A stretch of DNA of 64,000 bases from Eledone cirrhosa (Eukaryota), in the NCBI GenBank assembly GCA_964016885.1, contig OZ024742.1:227788001-227852000 (forward strand). The letters run 5' to 3'. The position numbers and the translations under genes are program-made. The notes beneath the pieces are model-generated. The model saw only the letters and a program-made list of their open reading frames with translations. It searched no databases and was not told where the DNA came from. Of the stretch, positions 13,583 to 53,582 are shown piece after piece (the stretch's first letter is position 1; the number at the start of each line of letters is the position of its first letter).

Positions 13583-13610
13583 TTAATATATATAATATAT
13601 ATATATATAT

Positions 13611-24003: not shown

Positions 24004-24105
24004 TCAGAAGATTCTTGGAATTCAGAATACAATCTTATAGCATTTGGTTTGCAATGGCTGGAGATCAACTCATCAGCCTTCCTGCAGTTCTCCAAGAATC
24101 TACTC
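24004..24105 (-). CDS. Host gene exon 5: (K)SRFLENCRKADELISSHCKPNAIRLYSEFQESS
   Basis: Acceptor tcttatatcttttacag, donor GA|gtatgt; phase 2 to 2; AA+G=Lys join across the satellite intron. Confidence 0.85.
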
Positions 24106-24174
24106 CTGTAAAAGATATAAGATAACCATTACTATCATCAACACCACCATCACTATCAACATTTTTCATAATCA

Positions 24175-27100
24175 AACAGTCCCACAGTTCACACAATGAC
24201 TGTCCAAAGGTCCACACTATGACAGTCATACAGACCACACTATGAGGGTCACAGACCACACTATGACAATCACACATCACATCACACTATGACAGTTGCA
24301 GTCCACACTATGACAGCTACAGTCAACACTATGACAGTCACAGTTCACACGATAACAGCTACAGTCAACACTATGACAGTCACAGTTCACACGATGACAG
24401 CTACAGTCAACACTATGACAGTCACAGTCCACACTAAGACAGCTACAGTCAACACTATGACAGTCACAGTTCACACTAAGACAGCTACAGTCAACACTAT
24501 GACAGTTGCAGTCCACACTATGACAGCTACAGTCAACACTATGACAGTCACAGTCCACACTAAGACAGCTACAGTCAACACTATGACAGTCACAGTTCAC
24601 ACGATGACAGCTACAGTCAACACTATGACAGTCACAGTTCACACGATGACAGCTACAGTCAACACTATGACAGTCACAGTCCACACTAAGACAGCTACAG
24701 TCAACACTATGACAGTCACAGTTCACACTAAGACAGCTACAGTCAACACTATGACAGTCACAGTTCACACGATGACAGCTACAGTCAACACTATGACAGT
24801 CACAGTCCACACTAAGACAGCTACAGTCAACACTATGACAGTCACAGTCCACACGATGACAGTCACAATGACAGCTACAGTCAACACTATGACAGCTACA
24901 GTCAACACTATGACAGCTACAGTCCACGCTATGACAGCTACAGTCAACACTATGACAGTCACAGTCCACACTATGCCAGCTACACTCCACACTATGACGG
25001 CTACAGTCACCACGATAACAGTCACAGTCCACACTATGACAGCTACAGTTCACACGATGACAGCTACAGTCCACACTATGACAGCTACAGTCAACACTAT
25101 GACAGCTACAGTAAACACTATGACAGTCACAGTCCACACTATGGCAGCTACAGCCAACACTATGTCAGTCACAGTCCACACTATGACAGCTACAGTCAAC
25201 ACTATGACAGTCACAGTCCACACTATTACAGCTACAGCCAACACTATGACAGTCACAGTCCACACTATGACAGCTACAGTCAACACTATGACAGTCACAG
25301 TCCACACTATGACAGCTACAGTCAACACTATGACAGCTACAGTTCACACTATGACAGCTACAGCCAACACTATGACAGCTACAGTCAACACTATGACAGC
25401 TACAGCCAACACTATGACAGTCACAGCTCACACTATGACAGCTACAGCCAACACTATGACAGTCACAGTCCACAATATGACAGCTACAGTCAACACTATG
25501 ACAGTCACAGTCCACACTATGACAGCTACAGCCAACACTATGACAGTCACAGTCCACACTATGGCAGCTACAGCCAACACTATGACAGTCACAGTCAACA
25601 CTATGACAGCTACAGCCAACACTATAACAGCTACAGTCAACACTATGACAGTCACAGTCCACACTAAGACAGCTACAGTCAACACTATGACAGTCACAGT
25701 CCACACTATGACAGCTACAGTCAACACTTTGACAGTCACAGTCCACACGATGACAGCTACAGTCAACACTATGACAGTCACAGTCCACACTATGACAGCT
25801 ACAGTCAACACTATGACAGTCACAGTCCACACTATGACAGCTACAGTCAACACTATGACAGTCACAGTCCACACTATGACAGCTACAGTCAACACTATGA
25901 CAGTCACAATCCACACTATGACAGTCACAGTCCACACGATGACAGCTACAGTCAACACTATGACAGTCACAGTCCACACTAAGACAGCTGCAGTCAACAC
26001 TATGACAGTCACAGTCCACACGATGACAGCTACAGTCAACACTATGACAGCTACAGCCAACACTATGACAGTCACAGTCCACACTATGACAGCTACAGTC
26101 ACTATGACAGTCACAGTCCACACTATGACAGCTACAGTCACTACTATGACAGTCACAGTCAACACTATGACAGCTACAGTCAACACTATGACAGTCACAG
26201 TCCACACTATGACAGCTACAGCCAACACTATGACAGCTACAGTCAACACTATGACAGTCACAGTCCACACTATGGCAGCTACAGCCAACACTATGACAGT
26301 CACAGTCCACACTATGACAGCTCAAACAACACTATGACAGTCACAGTCCACACTATGACAGTCACAGTCCACACTATGACAGCTACAGTCAACACTATGA
26401 CAGTCACAGTCCACACTATGACAGCTACAGTCCACACTATGACAGCTACAGTCAACACTATGACAGTCACAGTCCAGACTATAACAGTCACAGTCCACAC
26501 GATGACAGTCACAGTCCACACTATGACAGCTACAGTCCACACTATGACAGTCACAGTCCCCACGATAACAGTCACAGTCCACACGATGACAATCACAGTC
26601 CACACTATGACAGCTACAGTCCACACTATGACAGCTACAGTCCACACTATGACAGTCACAGTCCCCACGATAACAGTCACAGTCCACACTATGACAGTCA
26701 CAGTCCACACTATAACAGTCACAGTCCACACGATGACAGTCACAGTCCACACTATGACAGCTACAGTCAACACTTTGACAGCTACAGTCCACACTATGAC
26801 AGCTACAGTCAACACTATGACAGCTACAGTCAACACTATGACAGTCACAGTCCACACGATGACGGCTACAGTTCACACTATGACAGTCACAGTCCACACT
26901 ATGACAGCTACAGTCAACACTATGACAGTCACAGTCCACACGATGACAGCTACAGTTCACACTATGACAGCTACAGTCAACACTATGACAGTCACAGTCC
27001 ACACGATGACAGCTACAGTTCACACTATGACAGCTACAGTCAACACTATGACAGTCATAGTCCCCACGATAACAGTCACAGACAACACTATGACAGCTAC

Positions 27101-30100
27101 AGTTCACACTATGACAGTCACAGTCCACACTATGACAGCTACAGTCAACACTATGACAGTCACAGTCCACACGATGACAGCTACAGTCAACACTATGACA
27201 GTCACAGTCCACACGATGACAGCTACAGTTCACACTATGACAGCTACAGTCAACACTGTCACAGTCCACACTATGACAGTTACAGTCAACACTATGACAG
27301 TCACAGTCCACACGATGACAGCTACAGTTCACACTATGACAGCTACAGTCAACACTATGACAGTCATAGTCCCCACGATAACAGTCACAGACAACACTAT
27401 GACAGTTACATTCAACACTATGACAGTCACAGTCCACACGATGACAGCTACAGCCACAGTCCACACGATGACAGCTACAGTTCACACTATGACAGCTACA
27501 GTCAACACTATGACAGTCACAGTTCACACTATGACAGCTACAGTCAACACTATGACAGTCACAGTCCACACTATGACAGCTACAGTCAACACTATCACAG
27601 TCACAGTCCACACTATGACAGCTACAGTCAACACTATGACAGTCACAGTCAACACTATGGCAGCTACAGCCAACACTATGACAGTCACCGCCCACACTAT
27701 GACAGCTACAGCCAACACTATGACAGCTACAATCCACAGTATGGCAGCTACTGCCAACATTATGACAGTCACCGCCCACACTATGACAGCTACAGCCAAC
27801 ACTATGACAGCTACAGTCCACACTATGACAGCTACAGTCAACACTATGACAGTCACAGTCCACACTATGACAGCTACAGTCCACACTATGACAGCTACAG
27901 TCAACACTATGGCAGCTACAGCCAACACTATGACAGTCACCGCCCACACTATGACAGCTACAATCCACACTATGACAGCTACAGCCAACACTATGACAGT
28001 CACAGTCAACACTATGGCAGCTACAGCCAACACTATGACAGTCACCGCCCACACTATGACAGCTACAGCCAACACTATGACAGTCACAGTCCACACGATG
28101 ACAGCTACAGTTCACACTATGACAGCTACAGTCAACACTAAGACAGCTACAGTCAACACTATGACAGTCACAGTCCACACGATGACAGCTACAGTCAACA
28201 CTATGACAGTCACAGTCCACACTATGACAGCTACAGCCAACACTATGACAGTCACAGTCCACACTATGACAGTCACAGTCCACACGATGACAGCTACAGT
28301 CAACACTATGACAGTCACAGTCCACACTAAGACAGCTACAGTCAACACTATGACAGTCACAGTCCACACGATGACAGCTACAGTCAACACTATGACAGTC
28401 ACAGTCCACACGATGACAGCTACAGTTCACACTATGACAGCTACAGTCAACACTATGACAGTCACAGTCCACACTATGACAGCTACAGCCAACACTATGA
28501 CAGTCACAGTCCACACTATGACAGTCACAGTCCACACGATGACAGCTACAGTCAACACTATGACAGTCACAGTCCACACTAAGACAGCTACAGCCAACAC
28601 TATGACAGTCACAGTCCACACTATGACAGCTACAGTCAACACTATGACAGTCACAGTCCACACGATGACAGCTACAGTTCACACTATGACAGCTACAGTC
28701 AACACTATGACAGTCACAGTCCACACGATGACAGCTACAGTTCACACTATGACAGCTACAGTCCACACTATGACAGCTACAGTCAACACTATGACAGTCA
28801 CAGTCCACACTATGACAGCTACAATCCACACTATGACAGCTACAGCCAACACTATGACAGTCACAGTCCACACGATGACAGCTACAGTTCACACTATGAC
28901 AGCTACAGTCAACACTATGACAGTCACAGTTCACACTATGACAGCTACAGTCAACACTATGACAGTCACAGTCCACACGATGACAGCTACAATTCACACG
29001 ATGACAGCTACAGTTCACACTATGACAGCTACAGTCAACACTATGACAGTCACAGTCCACACTATGGCAGCTACAGCCAACACTATGACAGTCACAGTCC
29101 ACACTATGACAGTCACAATCAACACTATGACAGCTACAGTCAACACTATGACAGTCACAGTCAACACTATGACAGCTACAGTCAACACTATGACAGTCAC
29201 AGTCCACACTATGACAGCTACAGCCAACACTATGACAGTCACAGTCCACACTATGACAGTCACAATCAACACTATGACAGCTACAGTCAACACTATGACA
29301 GCTACAGCCAACACTATGGCAGCTATAGTCCACACTATGACAGCTACAGTCCACACTATGACAGCTACAGTCAACACTACGACAGTCACAGTCCACACTA
29401 TGACAGTCACAGTCCCCACGATAACAGTCAGTCCACACTATGACAGCTACAGTCCACACTAAGACAGCTACAGTCAACACTATGACAGTCACAGTCCACA
29501 CGATGACAGCTACAGTCAACACTATGACAGTCACAGTCCACACTAAGACAGCTACAGTCAACACTATGACAGTCACAGTCCACACGATGACAGCTACAGT
29601 CAACACTATGACAGCTACAGCCAACACTATGACAGTCACAGTCCACACTATGACAGCTACAGTCAACACTATGACAGTCACAGTCAACACTATGACAGCT
29701 ACAGTCAACACTATGGCAGTCACAGTCCACACTATGACAGCTACAGCCAACACTATGACAGTCACAGTCCACACTATGACAGCTACAGTCAACACTATGA
29801 CAGTCACAGTCCACACTATGACAGCTACAGTCAACACTATGGCAGTCACAGTCCACACTATGACAGCTACAGCCAACACTATGACAGCTACAGTCAACAC
29901 TATGACAGTCACAGTCCACACTATGGCAGCTACAGCCAACACTATGACAGTCACAGTCCATACTATCACAGCTACAGTCAACACTATGACAGTCACAGTC
30001 CACACTATGGCAGCTACAGCCAACACTATGACAGTCACAGTCCACACTATGACAGCTACAGCCAACACTATGACAGTCACAGTCCACACTATGACAGCTA

Positions 30101-33100
30101 CAGTCAACACTATGACAGTCACAGTCAACACTATGACAGCTACAGTCAACACTATGACAGTCACAGTCCACACTATGACAGCTACAGCCAACACTATGAC
30201 AGTCACAGTCCACACTATGACAGTCACAATCAACACTATGACAGCTACAGTCAACACTATGACAGCTACAGCCAACACTATGACAGCTATAGTCCACACT
30301 ATGACAGCTACAGTCAACACTACGACAGTCACAGTCCACACTATGACAGCTACAGTCCCCACGATAACAGTCACAGTCCACACTATGACAGCTACAGTCC
30401 ACACTAAGACAGCTACAGTCAACACTATGACAGTCACAGTCCACACGATGACAGCTACAGTCAACACTATGACAGTCACAGTCCACACTAAGACAGCTAC
30501 AGTCAACACTATGACAGTCACAGTCCACACGATGACAGCTACAGCCAACACTATGACAGTCACAGTCAACACAATGACAGTCACAGTCCAACGATGACAG
30601 TCACAGTCCACACTATGAATGCTACAGTCACCACTATGACAGCTACAGTCCACACTATGACAGCTACAGTCACAGTCCACACTATGACAGTCACAGTCCC
30701 CACGATAACAGTCACAGTCCACACTATGACAGTTACAGTTCACACGATGACAGCTACAGTTCACACGATGACAGCTACAGTCCACACTATGACAGCTACA
30801 GTCAACACTATGACAGTCACAGTCCACACTATGACAGCTACAGTCAACACTATGACAGTCACAGTCCACACGATGACAGCTACATTTCACACTATGACAA
30901 CTACAGTCAACACTATGACAGTCACAGTCCACACTATCGCAGATACAGCCAACACTATGACAGTCACAGTCCACACTATGACAGCTGCAGTCAACACTAC
31001 GACAGTCACAGTCCAAACTATGACAGCTACAGTCCACACTATGACAGTCACAGTCCCCACGATAACAGTCACAGTCCACACTATGACAGCTACAGTCCAC
31101 ACTATGACAGTCACAGTTCACACTATAATAGTCACAGTCCACACGATGACAGACACAGTCCACACTATGACAGCTACAGTCAACACTTTGACAGCTACAG
31201 TCCACACTATGACAGCTACAGTCAACACTATGACAGCTACAGTCAACACTATGACAGCTACAGTCAACACTATGACAGTCACAGTCCACACGATGACAGC
31301 TAGAGTCAACACTATGACAGTCACAGTCCACACTATGACAGCTACAGTCCACACTATGACAGTCACAGTTCAGACTATGACAGCTACAGTCAACACTACG
31401 ACAGCTACAGTCCACACTATGACAGTCACAGTCCCCACGATAACAGTCACAGTCCACACTATGACAGTCACAGTCCACACTATAACAGTCACAGTCCACA
31501 CGATGACAGTCACAGTCCACACTATGACAGCTACAGTCAACACTTTGACAGCTACAGTCTACACTATGACAGCTACAGTCAACACTATGACAGTCACAGT
31601 CCACACTATGACAGCTACAGTCAACACTATGACAGTCACAGTTCACACTATGACAGCTACAGTCAACACTATGACAGTCACAGTCCACACGATGACAGCT
31701 ACAGTTCACACTATGACAGCTACAGTCAACACTATGACAGCTACAGTCAACACTATGACAGTCACAGTCCACACTATGACAGCTACAGTCAACACTATGA
31801 CAGTCACAGTCCACACGATGACGGCTACAGTTCACACTATGACAGTCACAGTCCACACTATGACAGCTACAGTCAACACTATGACAGTCACAGTTCACAC
31901 TATGACAGCTACAGTCAACACTATGACAGTCATAGTCCCCACGATAACAGTCACAGACAACACTATGACAGCTACAGTTCACACTATGACAGCTACAGCC
32001 AACACTATGACAGTCACAGTCCACACTATGGCAGCTACAGCCAACACTATGACAGTCACAGTCCACACTATGACAGTCACAGTCCACACTATGGCAGCTA
32101 CAGCCAACACTATGACAGTCACAGTCCACACGATGACAGCTACAGTTCACACTATGACAGCTACAGTCAACACTATGACAGTCACAGTCGACACTATGAC
32201 AGCTACAGTCAACACTATGAGAGTCACAGTCCCCACGATAACAGTCACAGTTCACACTATGACAGCTACAGTTCACACTATGACAGCTAGTCAACACTAT
32301 GACAACTACAGTCCAAACTATGACAGTCACAGTCCACACTATGACAGCTACAGTCCACACTATGACAGTCACAGTCCACACTATGACAGCTACAGTCAAC
32401 ACTATGACAACTACAGTCCAACACTATGACAGTCACAGTCCACACTATGACAGCTACAGTCCACACTATGACAGTCACAGTCCACACTATGACAGTCACA
32501 GTCCACACTATGACAGCTACAGTCAACACTATGACAGTCAGTCCACACTATGGCAGCTACAGCCAACACTATGACAGTCACAGTTCACACTATGACAGCC
32601 ACAGTCAACACTATGACAGTCACATTCCACACGATGACAGCTACAGTCCACACTATGACAGTCACAGTCCACACGATGACAGCTACAGTCCACACTATGA
32701 CAGTCACAGTCCCCACGATAACAGTCACAGTCCACACTATGACAGCTACAGTCCACACTATGACAGCTACAGTCCACACTATGACAGCTACAGTCAACAC
32801 TATGACAGTCACCATCCACACGATGACAACTACAGTCCACACTATGACAGCTACAGTCCACACTATGACAGCTACAGTCCACACTATGACAGCTACAGTC
32901 CACACTATGACAGTCACAGTCCCCACGATAACAGGCACAGTCCACACTATGACAGTCACAGTCCACACGATGACAGCTACAGTTCACACTATGACAGCTA
33001 CAGTCAACACTATGACAGTCACAGTTCACACTATGACAGCTACAGTCAACACTATGACAGTCACAGTCCACACTATGACAGCTACAGTCAACACTATGAC

Positions 33101-36100
33101 AGTCAGTCCACACTATGACAGCTACAGTCCACACGATGACAGCTACAGTCCACACGATGACAACTACAGTCAACACTATGACAGTCACCAGCCACACTAT
33201 GACAGATACAGTCCACACTATGACAGCTACAGTCCACACTATGACAGTCACAGTCCCCACGATAACAGTCACAGTCCACACTATGACAGCTACAGTCCAC
33301 ACTATGACAGTCACAGTCCACACTATAACAGTCACAGTCAACACTTTGACAGCTACAGTCCACACTATGACAGCTACAGTCAACACTATGACAGTCACAG
33401 TCCACACGATGACAGCTACAGTTCACACTATGACAGCTACAGTCAAGACTATGACAGTCACAGTTCACACTATGACAGCTACAGTCAACACTATGACAGT
33501 CACAGTCCACACGATGACAGCTACAGTTCACACTATGACAGCTACAGTCAACACTATGACAGTCATAGTCCCCACGATAACAGTCACAGACAACACTATG
33601 ACAGTTACAGTCAACACTATGACAGTCACAGTCCACACGATGACAGCTACAGCCACAGTCCACACGATGACAGCTACAGTTCACACTATGACAGCTACAG
33701 TCAACACTATGACAGTCACAGTTCACACTATGACAGCTACAGTCAACACTATGACAGTCACAGTCCACACTATGACAGCTACAGTCAACACTATCACAGT
33801 CACAGTCCACACTATGACAGCTACAGTCAACACTATGACAGTCACAGTCAACACTATGGCAGCTACAGCCAACACTATGACAGCTACAATCCACACTATG
33901 ACAGCTACAGCCAACACTATGACAGCTACAATCCACAGTATGGCAGCTACTGCCAACATTATGACAGTCACCGCCCACACTATGACAGCTACAGCCAACA
34001 CTATGACAGCTACAGTCCACACTATGACAGCTACAGTCAACACTATGACAGTCACAGTCAACACTATGACAGTCACAGTCAACACTATGGCAGTCACAGT
34101 CCACACTATGACAGTCACAGTTCACACTATGACAGCTACAGTCAACACTATGACAGTCACCGCCCACACTATGACAGCTACAGCCAACACTATGACAGCT
34201 ACAATCCACAGTATGGCAGCTACTGCCAACATTATGACAGTCACCGCCCACACTATGACAGCTACAGCCAACACTATGACAGCTACAGTCCACACTATGA
34301 CAGCTACAGTCAACACTATGACAGTCACAGTCAACACTATGGCAGTCACAGTCCACACTATGGCAGTCACAGTCCACACTATGACAGATACAATCCACAC
34401 TATGACAGCTACAGCCAACACTATGATAGTCACAGTCAACACTATGGCAGCTACAGCCAACACTATGACAGTCACCGCCCACACTATGACAGCTACAATC
34501 CACACTATGACAGCTACAGCCAACACTATGACAGTCACAGTCCACACGATGACAGCTACAGTTCACACTATGACAGCTACAGTCAACACTATGACAGTCA
34601 CAGTCCACACTATGACAGCTACAGTCAACACTATGACAGTCACAGTCCACACGATGACAGCTACAGTTCACACTATGACAGCTACAGTCAACACTATGAC
34701 AGTCACAGTCCACACGATGACAGCTACAGTTCACACTATGACAGCTACAGTCAACACTATGACAGTCACAGTCCACACTATGACAGCTACAGTCAACACT
34801 ATGACAGTCACAGTCCACACTATGACAGCTACAATCCACACTATGACAGCTACAGCCAACACTATGACAGTCACAGGCCACACGATGACAGCTACAGTCA
34901 ACACTATGACAGTCACAGTTCACACTATGACAGCTACAGTCAACACTATGACAGTCACAGTCCACACGATGACAGCTACAATTCACACGATGACAGCTAC
35001 AGTTCACAATATGACAGCTACAGTCAACACTATGACAGTCACAGTCCACACTATGGCAGCTACAGCCAACACTATGACAGTCACAGTCCACACTATGACA
35101 GTCACAATCACCACTATGACAGCTACAGTCAACACTATGACAGTCACAGTCAACACTATGACAGCTACAGTCAACACTATGACAGTCACAGTCCACACTA
35201 TGACAGCTACAGCCAACACTATGACAGTCACAGTCCACACTATGACAGTCACAATCAACACTATGACAGCTACAGTCAACACTATGACAGCTACAGCCAA
35301 CACTATGGCAGCTATAGTCCACACTATGACAGCTACAGTCCACACTATGACAGCTACAGTCAACACTACGACAGTCACAGTCCACACTATGACAGTCACA
35401 GTCCCCACGATAACAGTCACAGTCCACACTATGACAGCTACAGTCCACACTAAGACAGCTACAGTCAACACTATGACAGTCACAGTCCACACGATGACAG
35501 CTACAGTCAACACTATGACAGTCACAGTCCACACTAAGACAGCTACAGTCAACACTATGACAGTCACAGTCCACACGATGACAGCTACAGTCAACACTAT
35601 GACAGCTACAGCCAACACTATGACAGTCACAGTCCACACTATGACAGCTACAGTCAACACTATGGCAGTCACAGTCCACACTATGACAGCTACAGCCAAC
35701 ACTATGACAGCTACAGTCAACACTATGACAGTCACAGTCCACACGATGACAGCTACAGTCAACACTATGACAGTCACAGTCCACACTAAGACAGCTACAG
35801 TCAACACTATGACAGTCACAGTCCACACGATGACAGCTACAGTCAACACTATGACAGCTACAGCCAACACTATGACAGTCACAGTCCACACTATGACAGC
35901 TACAGTCAACACTATGACAGTCACAGTCAACACTATGACAGCTACAGTCAACACTATGGCAGTCACAGTCCACACTATGACAGCTACAGCCAACACTATG
36001 ACAGCTACAGTCAACACTATGACAGTCACAGTCCACACTATGGCAGCTACAGCCAACACTATGACAGTCACAGTCCACACTATGACAGCTACAGTCAACA

Positions 36101-39100
36101 CTATGACAGTCACAGTCCACACTATGGCAGCTACAGCCAACACTATGACAGTCACAGTCCACACTATGACAGCTACAGCCAACACTATGACAGTCACAGT
36201 CCACACTATGACAGTCACAGTCAACACTATGACAGCTACAGTCAACACTATGACAGTCACAGTCCACACTATGACAGCTACAGCCAACACTATGACAGTC
36301 ACAGTCCACACTATGACAGTCACAATCAACACTATGACAGCTACAGTCAACACTATGACAGCTACAGCCAACACTATGACAGCTATAGTCCACACTATGA
36401 CAGCTACAGTCCACACTATGACAGCTACAGTCAACACTACGACAGTCACAGTCCACACTATGACAGCTACAGTCCCCACGATAACAGTCACAGTCCACAC
36501 TATGACAGCTACAGTCCACACTAAGACAGCTACAGTCAACACTATGACAGTCACAGTCCACACGATGACAGCTACAGTCAACACTATGACAGTCACAGTC
36601 CACACTAAGACAGCTACAGTCAACACTATGACAGTCACAGTCCACACGATGACAGCTACAGTCAACACTATGACAGTCACAGTCCACACTAAGACAGCTA
36701 CAGTCAACACTATGACAGCTACAGTCAACACTATGACAGTCACAGTCCACACGATGACGGCTACAGTTCACACTATGACAGTCACAGTCCACACTATGAC
36801 AGCTACAGTCAACACTATGACAGTCACAGTTCACACTATGACAGCTACAGTCAACACTATGACAGTCATAGTCCCCACGATAACAGTCACAGACAACACT
36901 ATGACAGCTACAGTTCACACTATGACAGCTACAGTCAACACTATGACAGTCACAGTCCACACTATGGCAGCTACAGCCAACACTATGACAGTCACAGTCC
37001 ACACTATGACAGTCACAGTCCACACTATGGCAGCTACAGCCAACACTATGACAGTCAAAGTCCACATGATGACAGCTACAGTTCACACTATGACAGCTAC
37101 AGTCATCACACTGACAGTCACCGTCCACACTATGACAGCTACAGCCAACACTATGACAGTCACAGTCCACACGATGACAGCTACAGTTCACACTATGACA
37201 GCTACAGTCAACACTATGACAGTCACAGTCGACACTATGACAGCTACAGTCAACACTATGAGAGTCACAGTCCCCACGATAACAGTCACAGTTCACACTA
37301 TGACAGCTACAGTTCACACTATGACAGCTAGTCAACACTATGACAACTACAGTCCAAACTATGACAGTCACAGTCCACACTATGACAGCTACAGTCCACA
37401 CTATGACATTCACAGTCCACACTATGACAGCTACAGTCAACACTATGACAACTACAGTCCAACACTATGACAGTCACAGTCCACTCTATGACAGCTACAG
37501 TCCACACTATGACAGTCACAGTCCACACTATGACAGTCACAGTCCACACTATGACAGCTACAGTCAACACTATGACAGTCACAGTCCACACAATGACAGC
37601 TACAGTTCACACTATGACAGCTACAGTCAACACTATGACAGTCAGTCCACACTATGGCAGCTACAGCCAACACTATGACAGTCACAGTTCACACTATGAC
37701 AGCTACAGTCAACACTATGACAGTCACAGTCCACACGATGACAGCTACAGTCCACACTATGACAGTCACAGTCCACACGATGACAGCTACAGTCCACACT
37801 ATGACAGTCACAGTCCCCACGATAACAGTCACAGTCCACACTATGACAGCTACACTCCACACTATGACAGCTACAGTCCACACTATGACAGCTACAGTCA
37901 ACACTATGACAGTCACCATCCACACGATGACAACTACAGTCCACACTATGACAGCTACAGTCCACACTATGACAGCTACAGTCCACACTATGACAGCTAC
38001 AGTCCACACTATGACAGTCACAGTCCCCACGATAACAGTCACAGTCCACACTATGACAGTCACAGTCCACACGATGACAGCTACAGTTCACACTATGACA
38101 GCTACAGTCAACACTATGACAGTCACAGTTCACACTATGACAGCTACAGTCAACACTATGACAGTCACAGTCCACACTATGACAGCTACAGTCAACACTA
38201 TGACAGTCAGTCCACACTATGACAGCTACAGTCCACACTATCACAGCTACAGTCAACACTATGACAGTCACAGTCCACACGATCGCAGCTACAGTCAACA
38301 TTATGACAGCTACAGTCCACACTATGACAGCTACAGTCAACGCTGACAGTCACAGTCCACACTATGACAGCTACAGTCAACACTATGACAGTCACAGTCC
38401 ACACGATGACAGCTACAGTTCACACTATGACAGCTACAGTCAACACTATGACAGTCACCATCCACACTATGACAGCTACAGTCCACACTATGACAGTCAC
38501 CAGCCACACTATGACAGATACAGTCCACACTATGACAGCTACAGTCCACACTATGACAGTCACAGTCCCCACGATAACAGTCACAGTCCACACTATGACA
38601 GCTACAGTCCACACTATGACAGTCACAGTCCACACTATAACAGTCACAGTCAACACTTTGACAGCTACAGTCCACACTATGACAGCTACAGTCAACACTA
38701 TGACAGTCACAGTCCACACGATGACAGCTACAGCCACAGTCCACACGATGACAGCTACAGTTCACACTATGACAGCTACAGTCAAGACTATGACAGTCAC
38801 AGTTCACACTATGACAGCTACAGTCAACACTATGACAGTCACAGTCCACACGATGACAGCTACAGTTCACACTATGACAGCTACAGTCAACACTATGACA
38901 GTCATAGTCCCCACGATAACAGTCACAGACAACACTATGACAGTTACAGTCAACACTATGACAGTCACAGTCCACACGATGACAGCTACAGCCACAGTCC
39001 ACACGATGACAGCTACAGTTCACACTATGACAGCTACAGTCAACACTATGACAGTCACAGTTCACACTATGACAGCTACAGTCAACACTATGACAGTCAC

Positions 39101-42100
39101 AGTCCACACTATGACAGCTACAGTCAACACTATCACAGTCACAGTCCACACTATGACAGCTACAGTCAACACTATGACAGTCACAGTCAACACTATGGCA
39201 GCTACAGCCAACACTATGACAGTCACCGCCCACACTATGACAGCTACAGCCAACACTATGACAGCTACAATCCACAGTATGGCAGCTACTGCCAACATTA
39301 TGACAGTCACCGCCCACACTATGACAGCTACAGCCAACACTATGACAGCTACAGTCCACACTATGACAGCTACAGTCAACACTATGACAGTCACAGTCAA
39401 CACTATGGCAGTCACAGTCCACACTATGGCAGTCACAGTCCACACTATGACAGATACAATCCACACTATGACAGCTACAGCCAACACTATGATAGTCACA
39501 GTCAACACTATGGCAGCTACAGTCAACACTATGATAGTCACAGTCAACACTATGGCAGCTACAGCCAACACTATGACAGTCAAAGTCCACATGATGACAG
39601 CTACAGTTCACACTATGACAGCTACAGTCATCACACTGACAGTCACCGTCCACACTATGACAGCTACAGCCAACACTATGACAGTCACAGTCCACACGAT
39701 GACAGCTACAGTTCACACTATGACAGCTACAGTCAACACTATGACAGTCACAGTCGACACTATGACAGCTACAGTCAACACTATGAGAGTCACAGTCCCC
39801 ACGATAACAGTCACAGTTCACACTATGACAGCTACAGTTCACACTATGACAGCTAGTCAACACTATGACAACTACAGTCCAAACTATGACAGTCACAGTC
39901 CACACTATGACAGCTACAGTCCACACTATGACAGTCACAGTCCACACTATGACAGCTACAGTCAACACTATGACAACTACAGTCCAACACTATGACAGTC
40001 ACAGTCCACTCTATGACAGCTACAGTCCACACTATGACAGTCACAGTCCACACTATGACAGTCACAGTCTACACTATGACAGCTACAGTCAACACTATGA
40101 CAGTCACAGTCCACACAATGACAGCTACAGTTCACACTATGACAGCTACAGTCAACACTATGACAGTCAGTCCACACTATGGCAGCTACAGCCAACACTA
40201 TGACAGTCACAATTCACACTATGACAGCTACAGTCAACACTATGACAGTCACAGTCCACACGATGACAGCTACAGTCCACACTATGACAGTCACAGTCCA
40301 CACGATGACAGCTACAGTCCACACTATGACAGCTACAGTCAACACTATGACAGTCACAGTCCACACGATGACAGCTACAGTCCACACTATGACAGTCACA
40401 GTCCACACGATGACAGCTACAGTCCACACTATGACAGCTACAGTCAACACTATGACAATCACAGTCCACACTATGGCAGCTACAGCCAACACTATGACAG
40501 TCACAGTCCCCACGATAACAGTCACAGTCCACACTATGACAGCTACACTCCACACTATGACAGCTACAGTCCACACTATGACAGCTACAGTCAACACTAT
40601 GACAGTCACCATCCACACGATGACAACTACAGTCCACACTATGACAGCTACAGTCCACACTATGACAGCTACAGTCCACACTATGACAGCTACAGTCCAC
40701 ACTATGACAGTCACAGTCCCCACGATAACAGTCACAGTCCACACTATGACAGTCACAGTCCACACGATGACAGCTACAGTTCACACTATGACAGCTACAG
40801 TCAACACTATGACAGTCACAGTTCACACTATGACAGCTACAGTCAACACTATGACAGTCACAGTCCACACTATGACAGCTACAGTCAACACTATGACAGT
40901 CAGTCCACACTATGACAGCTACAGTCCACACTATCACAGCTACAGTCAACACTATGACAGTCACAGTCCACACGATCGCAGCTACAGTCAACATTATGAC
41001 AGCTACAGTCCACACTATGACAGCTACAGTCAACGCTGACAGTCACAGTCCACACTATGACAGCTACAGTCAACACTATGACAGTCACAGTCCACACGAT
41101 GACAGCTACAGTTCACACTATGACAGCTACAGTCAACACTATAACAGTCACCATCCACACTATGACAGCTACAGTCCACAGTCCACACGATGACAGCTAC
41201 AGTCCACACGATGACAACTACAGTCAACACTATGACAGTCACCAGCCACACTATGACAGATACAGTCCACACTATGACAGCTACAGTCCACACTATGACA
41301 GTCACAGTCCCCACGATAACAGTCACAGTCCACACTATGACAGCTACAGTCCACACTATGACAGTCACAGTCCACACTATAACAGTCACAGTCAACACTT
41401 TGACAGCTACAGTCCACACTATGACAGCTACAGTCAACACTATGACAGTCACAGTCCACACGATGACAGCTACAGCCACAGTCCACACGATGACAGCTAC
41501 AGTTCACACTATGACAGCTACAGTCAACACTATGACAGTCACAGTTCACACTATGACAGCTACAGTCAACACTATGACAGTCACAGTCCACACGATGACA
41601 GCTACAGTTCACACTATGACAGCTACAGTCAACACTATGACAGTCATAGTCCCCACTATAACAGTCACAGACAACACTATGACAGTTACAGTCAACACTA
41701 TGACAGTCACAGTCCACACGATGACAGCTACAGCCACAGTCCACACGATGACAGCTACAGTTCACACTATGACAGCTACAGTCAACACTATGACAGTCAC
41801 AGTTCACACTATGACAGCTACAGTCAACACTATGACAGTCACAGTCCACACTATGACAGCTACAGTCAACACTATCACAGTCACAGTCCACACTATGACA
41901 GCTACAGTCAACACTATGACAGTCACAGTCAACACTATGGCAGCTACAGCCAACACTATGACAGTCACCGCCCACACTATGACAGCTACAATCCACAGTA
42001 TGGCAGCTACTGCCAACATTATGACAGTCACCGCCCACACTATGACAGCTACAGCCAACACTATGACAGCTACAGTCCACACTATGACAGCTACAGTCAA

Positions 42101-45100
42101 CACTATGACAGTCACAGTCAACACTATGGCAGTCACAGTCCACACTATGGCAGTCACAGTCCACACTATGACAGCTACAATCCACACTATGACAGCTACA
42201 GCCAACACTATGACAGTCACAGTCAACACTATGGCAGCTACAGCCAACACTATGACAGTCACCGCCCACACTATGACAGCTACAATCCACACTATGACAG
42301 CTACAGCCAACACTATGACAGTCACAGTCCACACGATGATAGCTACAGTTCACACTATGACAGCTACAGTAAACACTATGACAGTCACAGTCCACACTAT
42401 GACAGCTACAGTCAACACTATGACAGTCACAGTCCACACGATGACAGCTATAGTTCACACTATGACAGCTACAGTCAACACTATGACAGTCACAGTCCAC
42501 ACGATGACAGCTACAGTTCACACTATGACAGCTACAGTCAACACTATGACAGTCACAGTCCACACTATGACAGCTACAGTCAACACTATGACAGTCACAG
42601 TCCACACTATGACAGCTACAATCCACACTATGACAGCTACAGCCAACACTATGACAGTCACAGGCCACACGATGACAGCTACAGTTCACACTATGACAGC
42701 TACAGTCAACACTATGACAGTCACAGTTCACACTATGACAGCTACAGTCAACACTATGACAGTCACAGTCCACACGATGACAGCTACAATTCACACGATG
42801 ACAGCTACAGTTCACAATATGACAGCTACAGTCAACACTATGACAGTCACAGTCCACACTATGACAGCTACAGTCCACACTAAGACAGCTACAGTCCACA
42901 CTAAGACAGCTACAGTCAACACTATGACAGTCACAGTCCACACGATGACAGCTACAGTCAACACTATGACAGTCACAGTCCACACTAAGACAGCTACAGT
43001 CAACACTATGACAGTCACAGTCCACACGATGACAGCTACAGTCAACACTATGACAGCTACAGCCAACACTATGACAGTCACAGTCCACACTATGACAGCT
43101 ACAGTCAACACTATGACAGTCACAGTCAACACTATGACAGCTACAGTCAACACTATGGCAGTCACAGTCCACACTATGACAGCTACAGCCAACACTATGA
43201 CAGCTACAGTCAACACTATGACAGTCACAGTCCACACGATGACAGCTACAGTCAACACTATGACAGTCACAGTCCACACTAAGACAGCTACAGTCAACAC
43301 TATGACAGTCACAGTCCACACGATGACAGCTACAGACAACACTATGACAGCTACAGCCAACACTATGACAGTCACAGTCCACACTATGACAGCTACAGTC
43401 AACACTATGACAGTCACAGTCAACACTATGACAGCTACAGTCAACACTATGGCAGTCACAGTCCACACTATGACAGCTACAGCCAACACTATGACAGCTA
43501 CAGTCAACACTATGACAGTCACAGTCCACACTATGGCAGCTACAGCCAACACTATGACAGTCACAGTCCACACTATGACAGCTACAGTCAACACTATGAC
43601 AGTCACAGTCCACACTATGGCAGCTACAGCCAACACTATGACAGTCACAGTCCACACTATGACAGCTACAGCCAACACTATGAGAGTCACAGTCCACACT
43701 ATGACAGTCACAATCAACACTATGACAGCTACAGTCAACACTATGACAGCTACAGCCAACACTATGACAGCTACAGTCAACACTACGACAGTCACAGTCC
43801 ACACTATGATAGCTACAGTCCACACTAAGACAGCTACAGTCAACACTATGACAGTCACAGTCCACACGATGACAGCTACAGTCAACACTATGACAGTCAC
43901 AGTCCACACTAAGACAGCTACAGTCAACACTATGACAGTCACAGTCCACACGATGACAGCTACAGTCAACACTATGACAGTCACAGTCCACACTAAGACA
44001 GCTACAGCCAACACTATGACAGTCACAGTCAACACAATGACAGTCACAGTCCAACGATGACAGTCACAGTCCACACTATGAATGCTAGTCACCACCATGA
44101 CAGCTACAGTCACAGTCCACACTATGACAGCTACAATCCACACTATGACAGTCACAGTCCCCACGATAACAGTCACAGTCCACACTATGACAGTTACAGT
44201 TCACACGATGACAGCTACAGTCCACACTATGACAGCTACAGTCAACACTTTGACAGCTACAGTCAACACTATGACAGTCACAGTCCACACTATGACAGCT
44301 ACAGTCAACACTATGACAGTCACAGTCCACACGATGACAGCTACATTTCACACTATGACAACTATAGTCAACACTATGACAGTCACAGTCCACACTATCG
44401 CAGATACAGCCAACACTATGACAGTCACAGTCCACACTATGACAGCTACAGTCAACACTACGACAGTCACAGTCCAAACTATGACAGCTACAGTCCACAC
44501 TATGACAGTCACAGTCCCCACGATAACAGTCACACTCCACACTATGACAGCTACAGTCCACACTATGACAGTCACAGTTCACACTATAATAGTCACAGTC
44601 CACACGATGACAGACACAGTCCACACTATGACAGCTACAGTCAACACTTTGACAGCTACAGTCCACACTATGACAGCTACAGTCCACACGATGACAGCTA
44701 GAGTCAACACTATGACAGTCACAGTCCACACTATGACAGCTACAGTCCACACTATGACAGTCACAGTTCACACTATGACAGCTACAGTCAACACTACGAC
44801 AGTCACAGTTCACACTATGACAGCTACAGTCCACACTATGACAGTCACAGTCCCCACGATAACAGTCACAGTCCACACTATGACAGTCACAGTCCACACT
44901 ATAACAGTCAGTCCACACGATGACAGTCACAGTCCACACTATGACAGCTACAGTCAACACTTTGACAGCTACAGTCTACACTATGACAGCTACAGTCAAC
45001 ACTATGACAGTCACAGTTCACACTATGACAGCTACAGTCAACACTATGACAGTCACAGTCCACACGATGACAGCTACAGTTCACACTATGACAGCTACAG

Positions 45101-48100
45101 TCAACACTATGACAGCTACAGTCAACACTATGACAGTCACAGTCCACACTATGACAGCTACAGTCAACACTATGACAGCTACAGTCAACACTATGACAGT
45201 CACAGTCCACACGATGACGGCTACAGTTCACACTATGACAGTCACAGTCCACACTATGACAGCTACAGTCAACACTATGACAGCTACAGTCAACACTATG
45301 ACAGTCATAGTCCCCACGATAACAGTCACAGACAACACTATGACAGCTACAGTTCACACTATGACAGCTACAGTCAACACTATGACAGTCACAGTCCACA
45401 CTATGGCAGCTACAGCCAACACTATGACAGTCACAGTCCACACTATGACAGTCACAGTCCACACTATGGCAGCTACAGCCAACACTATGACAGTCAAAGT
45501 CCACATGATGACAGCTACAGTTCACACTATGACAGCTACAGTCATCACACTGACAGTCACCGTCCACACTATGACAGCTACAGTCAACACTACGACAGTC
45601 ACAGTCCACACTATGACAGCTACAGCCAACACTATGACAGTCACAGTCCACACGATGACAGCTACAGTTCACACTATGACAGCTACAGTCAACACTATGA
45701 CAGTCACAGTCGACACTATGACAGCTACAGTCAACACTATGAGAGTCACAGTCCCCACGATAACAGTCACAGTTCACACTATGACAGCTACAGTTCACAC
45801 TATGACAGCTAGTCAACACTATGACAGTCACAGTCCACACTATGACAACTACAGTCCAAACTATGACAGTCACAGTCCACACTATGACAGCTACAGTCCA
45901 CACTATGACAGTCACAGTCCACACTATGACAGCTACAGTCAACACTATGACAACTACAGTCCAACACTATGACAGTCACAGTCCACACTATGACAGCTAC
46001 AGTCCACACTATGACAGTCACAGTCCACACTATGACAGTCACAGTCCACACTATGACAGCTACAGTCAACACTATGACAGTCACAGTCCACACGATGACA
46101 GCTACAGTTCACACTATGACAGCTACAGTTCACACTATGACAGCTACAGTCAACACTATGACAGTCAGTCCACACTATGGCAGCTACAGCCAACACTATG
46201 ACAGTCACAGTTCACACTATGACAGCTACAGTCAACACTATGACAGTCACAGTCCACACGATGACAGCTACAGTCCACACTATGACAGTCACAGTCCACA
46301 CGATGACAGCTACAGTCCACACTATGACAGTCACAGTCCCCACGATAACAGTCACAGTCCACACTATGACAGCTACAGTCCACACTATGACAGTCACAGT
46401 CCACACGATGACAGCTACAGTCCACACGATGACAACTACAGTCAACACTATGACAGTCACCAGCCACACTATGACAGATACAGTCCACACTATGACAGCT
46501 ACAGTCCACACTATGACAGTCACAGTCCCCACGATAACAGTCACAGTCCACACTATGACAGCTACAGTCCACACTATGACAGTCACAGTCCACACTATAA
46601 CAGTCACAGTCAACACTTTGACAGCTACAGTCCACACTATGACAGCTACAGTCAACACTATGACAGTCACAGTCCACACGATGACAGCTACAGCCACAGT
46701 CCACACGATGACAGCTACAGTTCACACTATGACAGCTACAGTCAACACTATGACAGTCACAGTTCACACTATGACAGCTACAGTCAACACTATGACAGTC
46801 ACAGTCCACACGATGACAGCTACAGTTCACACTATGACAGCTACAGTCAACACTATGACAGTCATAGTCCCCACGATAACAGTCACAGACAACACTATGA
46901 CAGTTACAGTCAACACTATGACAGTCACAGTCCACACGATGACAGCTACAGCCACAGTCCACACGATGACAGCTACAGTTCACACTATGACAGCTACAGT
47001 CAACACTATGACAGTCACAGTTCACACTATGACAGCTACAGTCAACACTATGACAGTCACAGTCCACACTATGACAGCTACAGTCAACACTATCACAGTC
47101 ACAGTCCACACTATGACAGCTACAGTCAACACTATGACAGTCACAGTCAACACTATGGCAGCTACAGCCAACACTATGACAGTCACCGCGCACACTATGA
47201 CAGCTACAATCCACAGTATGGCAGCTACTGCCAACATTATGACAGTCACCGCCCACACTATGACAGCTACAGCCAACACTATGACAGCTACAGTCCACAC
47301 TATGACAGCTACAGTCAACACTATGACAGTCACAGTCAACACTATGGCAGTCACAGTCCACACTATGGCAGTCACAGTCCACACTATGACAGCTACAGCC
47401 AACACTATGACAGTCACAGTCAACACTATGGCAGCTACAGCCAACACTATGACAGTCACCGCCCACACTATGACAGCTACAATCCACACTATGACAGCTA
47501 CAGCCAACACTATGACAGTCACAGTCCACACGATGATAGCTACAGTTCACACTATGACAGCTACAGTCAACACTATGACAGTCACAGTCCACACTATGAC
47601 AGCTACAGTCAACACTATGACAGTCACAGTCCACACGATGACAGCTATAGTTCACACTATGACAGCTACAGTCAACACTATGACAGTCACAGTCCACACG
47701 ATGACAGCTACAGTTCACACTATGACAGCTACAGTCAACACTATGACAGTCACAGTCCACACTATGACAGCTACAGTCAACACTATGACAGTCACAGTCC
47801 ACACTATGACAGCTACAATCCACACTATGACAGCTACAGCCAACACTATGACAGTCACAGGCCACACGATGACAGCTACAGTTCACACTATGACAGCTAC
47901 AGTCAACACTATGACAGTCACAGTTCACACTATGACAGCTACAGTCAACACTATGACAGTCACAGTCCACACGATGACAGCTACAATTCACACGATGACA
48001 GCTACAGTTCACAATATGACAGCTACAGTCAACACTATGACAGTCACAGTCCACACTATGACAGCTACAGTCCACACTAAGACAGCTACAGTCCACACTA

Positions 48101-51100
48101 AGACAGCTACAGTCAACACTATGACAGTCACAGTCCACACGATGACAGCTACAGTCAACACTATGACAGTCACAGTCCACACTAAGACAGCTACAGTCAA
48201 CACTATGACAGTCACAGTCCACACGATGACAGCTACAGTCAACACTATGACAGCTACAGCCAACACTATGACAGTCACAGTCCACACTATGACAGCTACA
48301 GTCAACACTATGACAGTCACAGTCAACACTATGACAGCTACAGTCAACACTATGGCAGTCACAGTCCACACTATGACAGCTACAGCCAACACTATGACAG
48401 CTACAGTCAACACTATGACAGTCACAGTCCACACGATGACAGCTACAGTCAACACTATGACAGTCACAGTCCACACTAAGACAGCTACAGTCAACACTAT
48501 GACAGTCACAGTCCACACGATGACAGCTACAGACAACACTATGACAGCTACAGCCAACACTATGACAGTCACAGTCCACACTATGACAGCTACAGTCAAC
48601 ACTATGACAGTCACAGTCAACACTATGACAGCTACAGTCAACACTATGGCAGTCACAGTCCACACTATGACAGCTACAGCCAACACTATGACAGCTACAG
48701 TCAACACTATGACAGTCACAGTCCACACTATGGCAGCTACAGCCAACACTATGACAGTCACAGTCCACACTATGACAGCTACAGTCAACACTATGACAGT
48801 CACAGTCCACACTATGGCAGCTACAGCCAACACTATGACAGTCACAGTCCACACTATGACAGCTACAGCCAACACTATGAGAGTCACAGTCCACACTATG
48901 ACAGTCACAATCAACACTATGACAGCTACAGTCAACACTATGACAGCTACAGCCAACACTATGACAGCTACAGTCAACACTACGACAGTCACAGTCCACA
49001 CTATGATAGCTACAGTCCACACTAAGACAGCTACAGTCAACACTATGACAGTCACAGTCCACACGATGACAGCTACAGTCAACACTATGACAGTCACAGT
49101 CCACACTAAGACAGCTACAGTCAACACTATGACAGTCACAGTCCACACGATGACAGCTACAGTCAACACTATGACAGTCACAGTCCACACAATGACAGTC
49201 ACAGTCCAACGATGACAGTCACAGTCCACACTATGAATGCTAGTCACCACTATGACAGCTACAGTCACAGTCCACACTATGACAGCTACAATCCACACTA
49301 TGACAGTCACAGTCCCCACGATAACAGTCACAGTCCACACTATGACAGTTACAGTTCACACGATGACAGCTACAGTCCACACTATGACAGCTACAGTCAA
49401 CACTTTGACAGCTACAGTCAACACTATGACAGTCACAGTCCACACTATGACAGCTACAGTCAACACTATGACAGTCACAGTCCACACGATGACAGCTACA
49501 TTTCACACTATGACAACTATAGTCAACACTATGACAGTCACAGTCCACACTATCGCAGATACAGCCAACACTATGACAGTCACAGTCCACACTATGACAG
49601 CTACAGTCAACACTACGACAGTCACAGTCCAAACTATGACAGCTACAGTCCACACTATGACAGTCACAGTCCCCACGATAACAGTCACACTCCACACTAT
49701 GACAGCTACAGTCCACACTATGACAGTCACAGTTCACACTATAATAGTCACAGTCCACACGATGACAGACACAGTCCACACTATGACAGCTACAGTCAAC
49801 ACTTTGACAGCTACAGTCCACACTATGACAGCTACAGTCCACACGATGACAGCTAGAGTCAACACTATGACAGTCACAGTCCACACTATGACAGCTACAG
49901 TCCACACTATGACAGTCACAGTTCACACTATGACAGCTACAGTCAACACTACGACAGTCACAGTTCACACTATGACAGCTACAGTCCACACTATGACAGT
50001 CACAGTCCCCACGATAACAGTCACAGTCCACACTATGACAGTCACAGTCCACACTATAACAGTCAGTCCACACGATGACAGTCACAGTCCACACTATGAC
50101 AGCTACAGTCAACACTTTGACAGCTACAGTCTACACTATGACAGCTACAGTCAACACTATGACAGTCACAGTTCACACTATGACAGCTACAGTCAACACT
50201 ATGACAGTCACAGTCCACACGATGACAGCTACAGTTCACACTATGACAGCTACAGTCAACACTATGACAGCTACAGTCAACACTATGACAGTCACAGTCC
50301 ACACTATGACAGCTACAGTCAACACTATGACAGCTACAGTCAACACTATGACAGTCACAGTCCACACGATGACGGCTACAGTTCACACTATGACAGTCAC
50401 AGTCCACACTATGACAGCTACAGTCAACACTATGACAGCTACAGTCAACACTATGACAGTCATAGTCCCCACGATAACAGTCACAGACAACACTATGACA
50501 GCTACAGTTCACACTATGACAGCTACAGTCAACACTATGACAGTCACAGTCCACACTATGGCAGCTACAGCCAACACTATGACAGTCACAGTCCACACTA
50601 TGACAGTCACAGTCCACACTATGGCAGCTACAGCCAACACTATGACAGTCAAAGTCCACATGATGACAGCTACAGTTCACACTATGACAGCTACAGTCAT
50701 CACACTGACAGTCACCGTCCACACTATGACAGCTACAGTCAACACTACGACAGTCACAGTCCACACTATGACAGCTACAGCCAACACTATGACAGTCACA
50801 GTCCACACGATGACAGCTACAGTTCACACTATGACAGCTACAGTCAACACTATGAGAGTCACAGTCCCCACGATAACAGTCACAGTTCACACTATGACAG
50901 CTACAGTTCACACTATGACAGCTAGTCAACACTATGACAGTCACAGTCCACACTATGACAACTACAGTCCAAACTATGACAGTCACAGTCCACACTATGA
51001 CAGCTACAGTCCACACTATGACAGTCACAGTCCACACTATGACAGCTACAGTCAACACTATGACAACTACAGTCCAACACTATGACAGTCACAGTCCACA

Positions 51101-53458
51101 CTATGACAGCTACAGTCCACACTATGACAGTCACAGTCCACACTATGACAGTCACAGTCCACACTATGACAGCTACAGTCAACACTATGACAGTCACAGT
51201 CCACACGATGACAGCTACAGTTCACACTATGACAGCTACAGTTCACACTATGACAGCTACAGTCAACACTATGACAGTCAGTCCACACTATGGCAGCTAC
51301 AGCCAACACTATGACAGTCACAGTTCACACTATGACAGCTACAGTCAACACTATGACAGTCACAGTCCACACGATGACAGCTACAGTCCACACTATGACA
51401 GTCACAGTCCACACGATGACAGCTACAGTCCACACTATGACAGTCACAGTCCCCACGATAACAGTCACAGTCCACACTATGACAGCTACAGTCCACACTA
51501 TGACAGTCACAGTCCACACGATGACAGCTACAGTCCACACTATGACAGCTACAGTCAACACTATGACAGTCACAGTCCACACGATGACAGCTACAGTCAA
51601 CACTATGACAGTCACAGTCCACACTATGACAGCTACAGTCAACACTATGACAGTCACAGTCCACACGATGACAGCTACAGTCCACACTATGACAGCTACA
51701 GTCAACACTATGACAGTCACAGTCAACACTATGGCAGCTACAGCCAACACTATGACAGTCACCGCCCACACTATGACAGCTACAGCCAACACTATGACAG
51801 CTACAATCCACACTATGACAGCTACAATCCACACTATGACAGTCACAGTCCACACTAAGACAGCTACAGTTCACACTATGGCAGCTACAGCCAACACTAT
51901 GACAGTCACAGTCCACACGATGACAGCTACAGTTCACACTATGACAGCTACAGTCAACACTATGACAGTCACAGTCCACACTATGACAGCTACAGTCAAC
52001 ACTATGACACTCACAGTCCACACGATGACAGCTACAGTTCACACTATGACAGCTACAGTCAACACTATGACAGTCACAGTCCACACGATGACAGCTACAG
52101 TTCACACTATGGCAGCTACAGCCAACATTATGACAGTCACCGCCCACACTATGACAGCTACAGCCAACACTATGACAGCTACAGTCCACACTATGACAGC
52201 TACAGCCAACACTATGACAGTCACAGTCCACACTATGACAGCTACAGACAACACTATGACAGTCACAGTCCACACTATGACAGCTACAGTCAACAGTATG
52301 ACAGTCACAGTCCCCACGATAACAGTCACAGTCCACACTATGACAGCTACAGTCAACACTATGACAGCTAGTCAACACTATGACAGCTAGTCAACACTAT
52401 GACAGTAACAGTCCACACTATGACAACTACAGTCCAAACTATAACAGTCACAGTCCACACTGACAGTCACAGTTCACACTATGACAGCTACAGTCCAAAC
52501 TATGACAGCTACAGTTCACACTATGACAGCTACAGTCAACACTATGACAGTCACAATTCACACTATGACAGCTACAGTCCAAACTATGACAGCTACAGTT
52601 CACACTATGACAGCTACAGTCAACACTATGACAGTCACAGTTCACACTATGACAGCTACAGTCAACACTATGACAGCTACAGTTCACACTATGACAGCTA
52701 CAGTCAACACTATGACAGTCACAGTCCACACTATGGCAGCTACAGCCAACACTATGACAGTCACCGCCCACACTATGACAGCTACAGCCAACACTATGAC
52801 AGCTACAGTCCACACTATGACAGCTACAGCCAACACTATGACAGTCACAGTCCACACTATGACAGCTACAGTCAACACTACGACAGTCACAGTCCACACT
52901 ATGACAGCTACAGTCCACACTATGATAGTCACAGTCCACACGATGACAGCTACAGTCCACACGATGACAGTCACAGTCCACACTATGACAGCTACAGTCA
53001 ACACTATGACAGTCACAGTCCACACGATGACAGCTACAGTCCACACTATGACAGCTACAGTCAACACTATGACAGTCAGTCCACACTATGACAGCTACAG
53101 TCAACACTATGACAGCTACAGTCCACACTATGACAGCTACAGTCAACACTATGATAGTCACAGTCCACACGATGGCAGCTACAGTCCACACTATGACAGC
53201 TACAGTCAACGCTGACAGTCACAGTCCACACAATTACAGCTACAGTCAACACTATGACAGTCACAGTCCACACGATGACAGCTACAGTTCACACTATGAC
53301 AGCTAGTCAACACTATGACAGTCACCGTCCACACGATGACAACTACAGTCAACACTATGACAGCTACAGTCAACACTATGACAGTCACAGTCCACACTAA
53401 AGTAGTCACAGTGCTCACTACGACAGTCACACAGGCCACACCATGACAATCCCACAGA
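24175..53458. repeat. 29.3-kb tandem array of a 21-bp unit (ACTATGACAGTCACAGTCCAC / ACTATGACAGCTACAGTCAAC), ~1,390 units, intronic
   Basis: Directly visible; frequent A/B alternation (42 bp); degenerate units at both edges; recurrent diagnostic indels define 2.5-5.2-kb duplicated blocks. Confidence 0.99.
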
Positions 53459-53477
53459 AACAATAACAAAGACTTAC

Positions 53478-53582
53478 TTGTCGAGTTCCTGGAATTTATC
53501 TAAGTTATCTCGGTTTGTGTTGTCCAGGAGACGAGTGCTGATCTCTTGTGTGTGGCTGGCTAGATTTGTGATGGTCGGGACA
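53478..53582 (-). CDS. Host gene exon 4: (C)VPTITNLASHTQEISTRLLDNTNRDNLDKFQELD
   Basis: Acceptor ctctctttctctccag, donor AA|gtaagt; phase 2 to 2. Confidence 0.88.

Follow-up and report, generated by a model that had tools for sequence, protein, structure and literature searches.

How can a gene that is still spliced carry an intron built almost entirely of one short tandem repeat, and does such an array do anything for its host? The question is posed by a 64,000-nt stretch of the Eledone cirrhosa genome (assembly GCA_964016885.1, contig OZ024742.1, positions 227,788,001 to 227,852,000 of the forward strand; hereafter the window, whose numbering we use throughout), in which a 21-bp repeat fills a 29-kb intron of a TBK1/IKKe-like kinase gene. 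An earlier inspection of the letters (the sequence-only reading) had described this intron and likened it to the satellite-filled introns of Drosophila Y-linked genes. We conclude, with a probability of roughly 0.78, that the array is a single-locus minisatellite that has grown as tolerated, near-neutral filler of an intron of a spliced TBK1/IKKe-like gene.

An intron filled by one minisatellite

The intron lies on the minus strand, running from 53477 to 24106 (29,372 nt), and is the 13th of the 16 introns that we traced. It opens with GTAAGT and closes with TTTTACAG, and it interrupts the frame in phase 2, between an upstream exon of 105 nt and a downstream exon of 102 nt that join through the codon AA|G (Lys); the canonical sites and the in-frame join were as the sequence-only reading had given them. 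Between these ends, Tandem Repeats Finder (TRF) called one 21-bp array at 24864-53399, with 1,358 copies and 82% matches, and further units were present below 24864. A wrap-around parse divided the intron into 1,397 segments, some 12 of which are degenerate pieces of the edges or flanks, leaving ~1,390 units in head-to-tail arrangement; 1,334 of the 1,397 segments are exactly 21 nt long. The copy number reported previously therefore stands, although the single unit that was quoted accounts for only 292 of the 1,397 segments: there are 155 variants, the second type having 256 segments. Because adjacent units more often belong to different main classes than to the same one (898 against 353 neighbour pairs), the two classes tending to alternate, identity peaks at a lag of 42, a dimer period of 42 bp.

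Very little of the intron falls outside the repeat. The 11-mers that occur at least three times cover 99.3% of it, and the longest stretches outside the repeat measure 36 nt at the donor end, 77 nt at the acceptor end and at most 15 nt in the interior; the array therefore holds no mobile-element insertion, as had been noticed. Counting from the donor, degenerate units begin at 18 nt and clean units at 82 nt. The intron contains no Ns, and the units decay gradually toward both edges of the array. The array does lie close to both splice sites, as was claimed, although we put the total of unique sequence at under ~110 nt rather than below 100 nt. U+G makes up 66.75% of the intron, which agrees with the earlier estimate of two-thirds. 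The parts of the intron are as follows.

24106..53477, minus strand: GT-AG intron of the TBK1/IKKe-like gene, spliced out in the contig of run X4 (see below)
24183..53459, minus strand: 21-bp single-locus minisatellite of ~1,390 units with degenerate edges; clean units at ~24284-53395
41207..51538, minus strand: 5.1-kb block in tandem duplication (5,113 + 5,218 nt; 4 mismatches, 3 indel events)
24106..24182, minus strand: acceptor end, 77 nt of non-repeat sequence that holds the pyrimidine tract
53442..53477, minus strand: donor end, GTAAGT plus 36 nt unrepeated in the intron, the last 18 nt being a degenerate unit

A genome-wide search for the 21-mer, which had been proposed as a check, was made in the whole assembly (3.0 Gb), in which the intron occupies an interior position on a chromosome-scale contig of 379 Mb. 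All 293 matches to the exact unit fell inside the intron, as did all 890 matches to a degenerate unit pattern, and 509 of the 548 matches to a 17-mer with one mismatch allowed were in the window. The array is thus confined to one locus; the match search disclosed no dispersed family, and the label "satellite" used in the sequence-only reading gives way to single-locus minisatellite. A reversed control 17-mer returned 946 matches, on a single strand and with 0 in the window, and probably met an unrelated array by chance.

The host gene and its spliced junction

Eight public runs were available, none of them recorded as RNA; that run X4, which comes from the study that also produced the probable assembly sample, represents RNA is taken from its spliced contig. 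This run holds one contig of 3,642 nt at a depth of 81.8. Its pieces matching 53477-53582, 57013-57148 and 58279-58430 show 0 differences from the genome, and a gap of 88 nt agrees with the intervening exon. Exon 24004-24105 is found at record positions 1674-1787 in an X4 contig of equal length and depth, and the loose letters around it lead on one side into the exon beginning at 53478 and on the other into the exon ending at 21875. Since this exon continues into both of its neighbours, the exon junction across the 29-kb array is made in RNA. The junction 53478 to 24105, for which the sequence-only reading had asked for reads, is therefore present, with the two exons joined exactly. A retrocopy was considered as the origin of the spliced contig and is unlikely, the upstream exon matching the assembly once.

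The host is an intact TBK1/IKKe-like kinase gene. Using neighbouring genome stretches and a full-length homolog as guides, we traced 17 exons over ~79 kb, with GT-AG boundaries at every intron and 669 codons free of stops; the last, stop-bearing exon would lie beyond the traced part. Together with the spliced contig, this bears out the earlier impression of an intact gene. The remaining introns measure 171 to 11,676 nt, two of them ~11 kb. The traced protein is 86% identical to an Octopus sinensis protein and 60% identical to the full-length homolog; one exon reaches 94% identity to the O. sinensis protein, which is annotated as uncharacterized and is collinear with the gene across the array junction. 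Against the PDB, the top 12 of 15 matches of a kinase exon further upstream are to TBK1 (best E value 1.5e-13; next family 1.4e-4), and the TBK1 ubiquitin-like domain PF18396 scores 56.3 bits, above its cut-off, on the same strand and 1 kb past the window. The coiled-coil scaffold PF18394 reaches 19.3 bits (E value 9e-4; cut-off 25.9) in the O. sinensis orthologue and 120 bits, above the cut-off, in a weak homolog (P0008). We leave the assignment at TBK1/IKKe-like because another TBK1/IKK-like kinase gene, whose introns are compact, is present on the plus strand of C15:4393001-4403000. The exons in the window with orthologue support, in the order of transcription, are:

58280..58430, minus strand: exon, 151 nt; orthologue and X4 contig
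57014..57149, minus strand: exon, 136 nt; orthologue and X4 contig
54611..54699, minus strand: exon, 89 nt; orthologue, and fits the 88-nt gap in the X4 contig
53478..53582, minus strand: exon upstream of the array, 105 nt, coiled-coil/scaffold region; orthologue and X4 contig
24004..24105, minus strand: exon downstream of the array, 102 nt; orthologue and X4 contig
21785..21875, minus strand: exon, 91 nt; orthologue and loose letters of the X4 contig
20425..20495, minus strand: exon, 71 nt; orthologue
19976..20031, minus strand: exon, 56 nt, the last traced with orthologue support; orthologue

The O. sinensis entry (LOC115231772, 280 aa, "uncharacterized") matches the C-terminal half of a TBK1-like kinase and is probably a split gene model. 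A search of the PDB with this protein gave nothing better than an E value of 0.29, and neither an ESM Atlas match above 0.8 nor a match among longer proteins was found. Small repeats also occur in other introns of the gene. A degenerate 40-bp minisatellite lies in an upstream intron (57847-58189), with run X5 ~90% identical on both sides, and the 11.6-kb intron has, at window coordinates 75084-76604, three blocks spaced ~605 bp apart, each of three 98-bp units.

Giant arrays across the genome

Is an array of this size exceptional in its genome? As background we sampled 10-kb stretches at even spacing, 138 in all, from 23 large contigs, leaving out C15:4393001-4403000, which had been chosen for its gene. 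TRF covers 31% of the sampled bases, and a single array with a period of at least 7 and a length of at least 9.5 kb fills 14 of the 138 stretches (Wilson 95% interval 6-16%; length-weighted, 10%). Their units, one per array, are unrelated and range from 7 to 227 bp. Four of the 14 were checked genome-wide: three were dominated by one locus and the fourth belonged to a dispersed family. For the three, the ends were located directly, and the interiors are reconstructed from match counts:

C13:21890077-22033650: mostly single-locus array, ~144 kb, 28-bp unit
C5:4962924-5039866: mostly single-locus array, 77 kb, 44-bp unit
C1:422851203-423058957: array of ~208 kb, 85-bp unit, inside a LINE-like (long interspersed element) element; the unit is also scattered singly genome-wide

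Because larger arrays are common in the sampled genome, the 29-kb array is ordinary in E. cirrhosa. The genome-wide load of giant arrays that the 138 samples indicate is probably real, and we find it a more interesting lead than the TBK1 intron alone. At ~10% of the sampled sequence, with some arrays of 77-208 kb, it may contribute to octopod genome size in a way so far overlooked and may also cause broken gene models. We say overlooked because the word "satellite" does not occur in the available main text of the cephalopod genome papers searched (PMC13218726, 10.1101/2025.08.29.672809, PMC12682272, 10.1101/2023.05.16.540928); the accessible text of one among these, a Sepia genome paper, gives 5.83% simple repeats. 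A literature search found nothing on the TBK1 intron locus or on giant octopod minisatellites, with subscription journals largely outside its coverage.

A bolder proposal would combine all of this into a so far undescribed way for octopod genomes to grow: giant minisatellites in their thousands, many confined to one locus, would account for roughly a tenth of the genome and enlarge the introns of working genes, while in the present intron a length-variable, structured, UGU-rich RNA would tune the output of TBK1. Taken as a whole we consider this improbable, the tuning of TBK1 being its unlikely part.

Two observations from the sampled stretches are added here. The 65-bp array at C18:3000001-3010000 contains a 20-mer that matches the genome 29,697 times, on either strand and both singly and in arrays, so that this repeat is dispersed and seeds tandem arrays at many places. 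The arrays at C19:36 Mb and C1:137 Mb have stop-free frames of 741 and 1,582 codons, and the 54-bp unit of the former could be coding.

Growth, tolerance and the question of function

The order of the unit variants suggests how the array came about. The longest stretches repeated with their units in the same order are 77 and 75 units long, whereas 20 unit shuffles never exceeded 7, and these copies correspond to a tandem block: 51538-46425 and 46425-41207 are 99.9% identical, with 4 mismatches and 3 indels. Shorter shared unit runs, which appear to be older and more diverged block copies, occur at many other offsets. The pattern is best read as that of a variant-repeat minisatellite growing by duplication of units and of blocks. 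The near-perfect 5.1-kb copy and the absence of insertions together support recent growth, which the sequence-only reading had proposed, and it is reasonable to suppose that the intron was formerly small. Run X5, from another species, has ~90%-identical pieces near 57520-58497 and no contig on either exon flanking the array; the longest record for the O. sinensis protein, 25,955 bases, is weak evidence, capping the orthologous intron below 29 kb only if it is genomic; and two runs of restriction-site-associated DNA sequencing (RAD-seq) gave no coverage of the flanking exons or the array edges.

The account that we favour, of a tolerated and near-neutral filler, would run as follows. A seed repeat would have lain in a short intron and grown via unequal exchange or slippage, the mechanism that we infer, sometimes copying kilobases in one event. 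The sense strand of the array would hold few signals that could misdirect the spliceosome or 3'-end processing: in the intron, AATAAA/ATTAAA and pyrimidine runs of at least 8 occur 0 times, GTAAG is found once (the donor itself) and GTGAG 3 times, and 426 branch-like YTRAY words are present, none with a tract after it. Because the array lacks a strong donor, a pyrimidine tract and a poly(A) signal, it is likely tolerated, so that both exons are recognised; the short unique ends would alone be under selection, and likely persist through selection for the donor, the branch region and the pyrimidine tract. Transcription proceeds at 1-4 kb/min, and the likely cost of 29 kb would be some extra minutes. 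The intron is a clean and large case of an intron-filling minisatellite, in which correct splicing is still possible with a 29-kb repeat and under ~110 nt of unique intron; should its alleles vary, it would offer a convenient natural test of the effects of intron length and of repeats.

The nearest known class is that of locus-specific variable number tandem repeat (VNTR) arrays, 10-50 kb long and with higher-order blocks. According to the available part of one survey, hg18 lists 16 locus-specific VNTR arrays above 10 kb, with units of 20-40 bp and lengths of 10-53 kb, several of which have irregular higher-order blocks (PMC2588610); the octopus array, with its 21-bp unit, 29 kb and 5.1-kb blocks, falls within this range. 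The genomes differ in load, hg18 being old and incomplete: ~10% of the sampled octopus sequence is in arrays of at least 10 kb. At the level of the single intron, the accessible portions of two reports describe a 25-bp VNTR in ABCA7 intron 18 that spans 300 bp to >10 kb and whose length is linked to lower expression and to skipping of exon 19 (PMC6660495; PMC10078293). The octopus array is like it in having a similar unit size and in lying within an expressed gene, in an intron whose two neighbouring exons are both used. What separates the two is the octopus length of 29 kb and the effect on expression and skipping, measured for ABCA7. The minisatellites at amphioxus "mirage" splice junctions likewise abut splice sites, whereas the octopus unit has no donor copy. 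An origin of that kind, with a unit copying an exon edge and splice site, was rejected, since GTAAG occurs once and the 36 nt at the donor side are unrepeated.

The ABCA7 precedent frames the chief alternative to neutral filling, in which the array arose as a by-product and nevertheless tunes TBK1, longer alleles cutting expression or skipping the next exon via UGU-binding proteins or RNA structure. The array adjoins both splice sites, and the downstream exon is 102 nt, so its skipping would keep the frame; the word UGUG occurs 1,336 times. CELF proteins bind UGU-rich words, and TDP-43 prefers longer UG runs. Such runs are wanting: UGUGUG occurs 7 times and no pure UG run goes beyond 3 dinucleotides, so the earlier suggestion of a scaffold for UG-binding proteins found no positive evidence. 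An 8-bp inverted repeat, one pair of which is G-U, lies within the most frequent unit, and the array RNA is predicted to form long imperfect duplexes. Its folding is nevertheless unremarkable against column-permuted repeats, which for four slices did as well in 24, 2, 16 and 6 cases out of 100, and several of 14 other arrays reach a similar z (-4.2, -3.5, -3.3). The sole transcript contig includes both exons, though contigs drop rare forms. Overall we think tuning unlikely.

A larger role, as a selected timer or RNA scaffold served by dedicated proteins in the manner of Drosophila kl-3 and kl-5, is hardly credible. As in those genes, the intron is mostly tandem repeat (99.3%) with a strong strand bias, and it is transcribed within an expressed protein-coding gene. 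The Drosophila Y genes, as described in the available text of one report and in a second (PMC11207136; PMC6508613), exceed 4 Mb with megabase introns, take most of the 80-90 h interphase to transcribe, are germline-specific, need Blanks and Heph, and have kept their size across species. Unlike their introns of hundreds of kb to Mb, the octopus intron measures 29,372 nt within a gene of ~79 kb, which has two other introns of ~11 kb; it is about two orders of magnitude below the 4-Mb genes, its unit is single-locus and its locus interior, and it points to recent growth rather than conservation in a genome where larger arrays are common. The likeness drawn in the sequence-only reading therefore fails on size. 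The kinase also argues against such a role: TBK1-like kinases are broadly expressed in other animals.

An artefact of assembly must also be weighed, in which the array is real and its length was inflated or collapsed, for example by two haplotypes set in tandem as the 5.1-kb duplicate. Array length is indeed taken from the assembly, the block copies are 99.9% identical, and typical accurate long reads are short compared with the array. On the acceptor side, a contig of run X1 stops at 24161, before the repeats start, so that this anchor lacks independent support; on the donor side a contig of X1 covers the upstream exon and runs on for 98 nt into the intron with 0 differences, although X1 may represent the very sample that was assembled. 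The absence of Ns, the gradual decay of units at both edges and the older, more diverged block copies at many offsets all speak for a genuine array, and a mis-join of unrelated loci is ruled out because the sequences on either side are parts of a single gene, correctly ordered and in matching phase. We regard a substantially wrong length as very unlikely.

Other tests for function likewise gave no sign of function or selection, in UG runs, in folding or in reading frames. Four of the six unit frames are open, and a stop-free sense run of 2,033 codons extends from 32423 to 26325 on the minus strand. A run of that length was reached in 0 of 100 single-unit shuffles but in 7, 11 and 22 of 200 block-preserving shuffles, and read-through past the donor meets TAA at once. 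A coding repeat was rejected, given that the run has no ATG and that 42 of 54 length variants shift the frame; the run itself (26325-32423) would encode Val/Thr/Ile and Cys/His heptads. A DNA hairpin driving the expansion was rejected as well, neither strand beating shuffles (z +0.37 and +1.21).

Several points weigh against near-neutral filling. Neutrality is deduced from the commonness of such arrays and the lack of signals, and splicing is known from one contig only, which cannot show efficiency, retention or skipping. For a 300-nt slice of the sense RNA, folding is stronger than in dinucleotide shuffles (z -3.7, 0/200), and by absolute energy the sense RNA is the most stable of 15 arrays. 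The TBK1-like locus is interior, where arrays are scarcer: 11/58 stretches within 25 Mb of contig ends were filled, against 3/80 interior ones (Fisher p 0.008). Finally, a strict exon filter applied to 5 kb of left and 16-20 kb of right flank did not show the three larger arrays to be intronic, its 14 candidates being mostly retroelement or noise, so wall-to-wall filling of introns may be rarer than large arrays.

Elsewhere in the window, LINE-like element copies lie in both orientations at 5215-11100, 13600-16300, 60800-63900 and other places, and carry endonuclease and reverse transcriptase words, frameshifts and (ATC)n tails.

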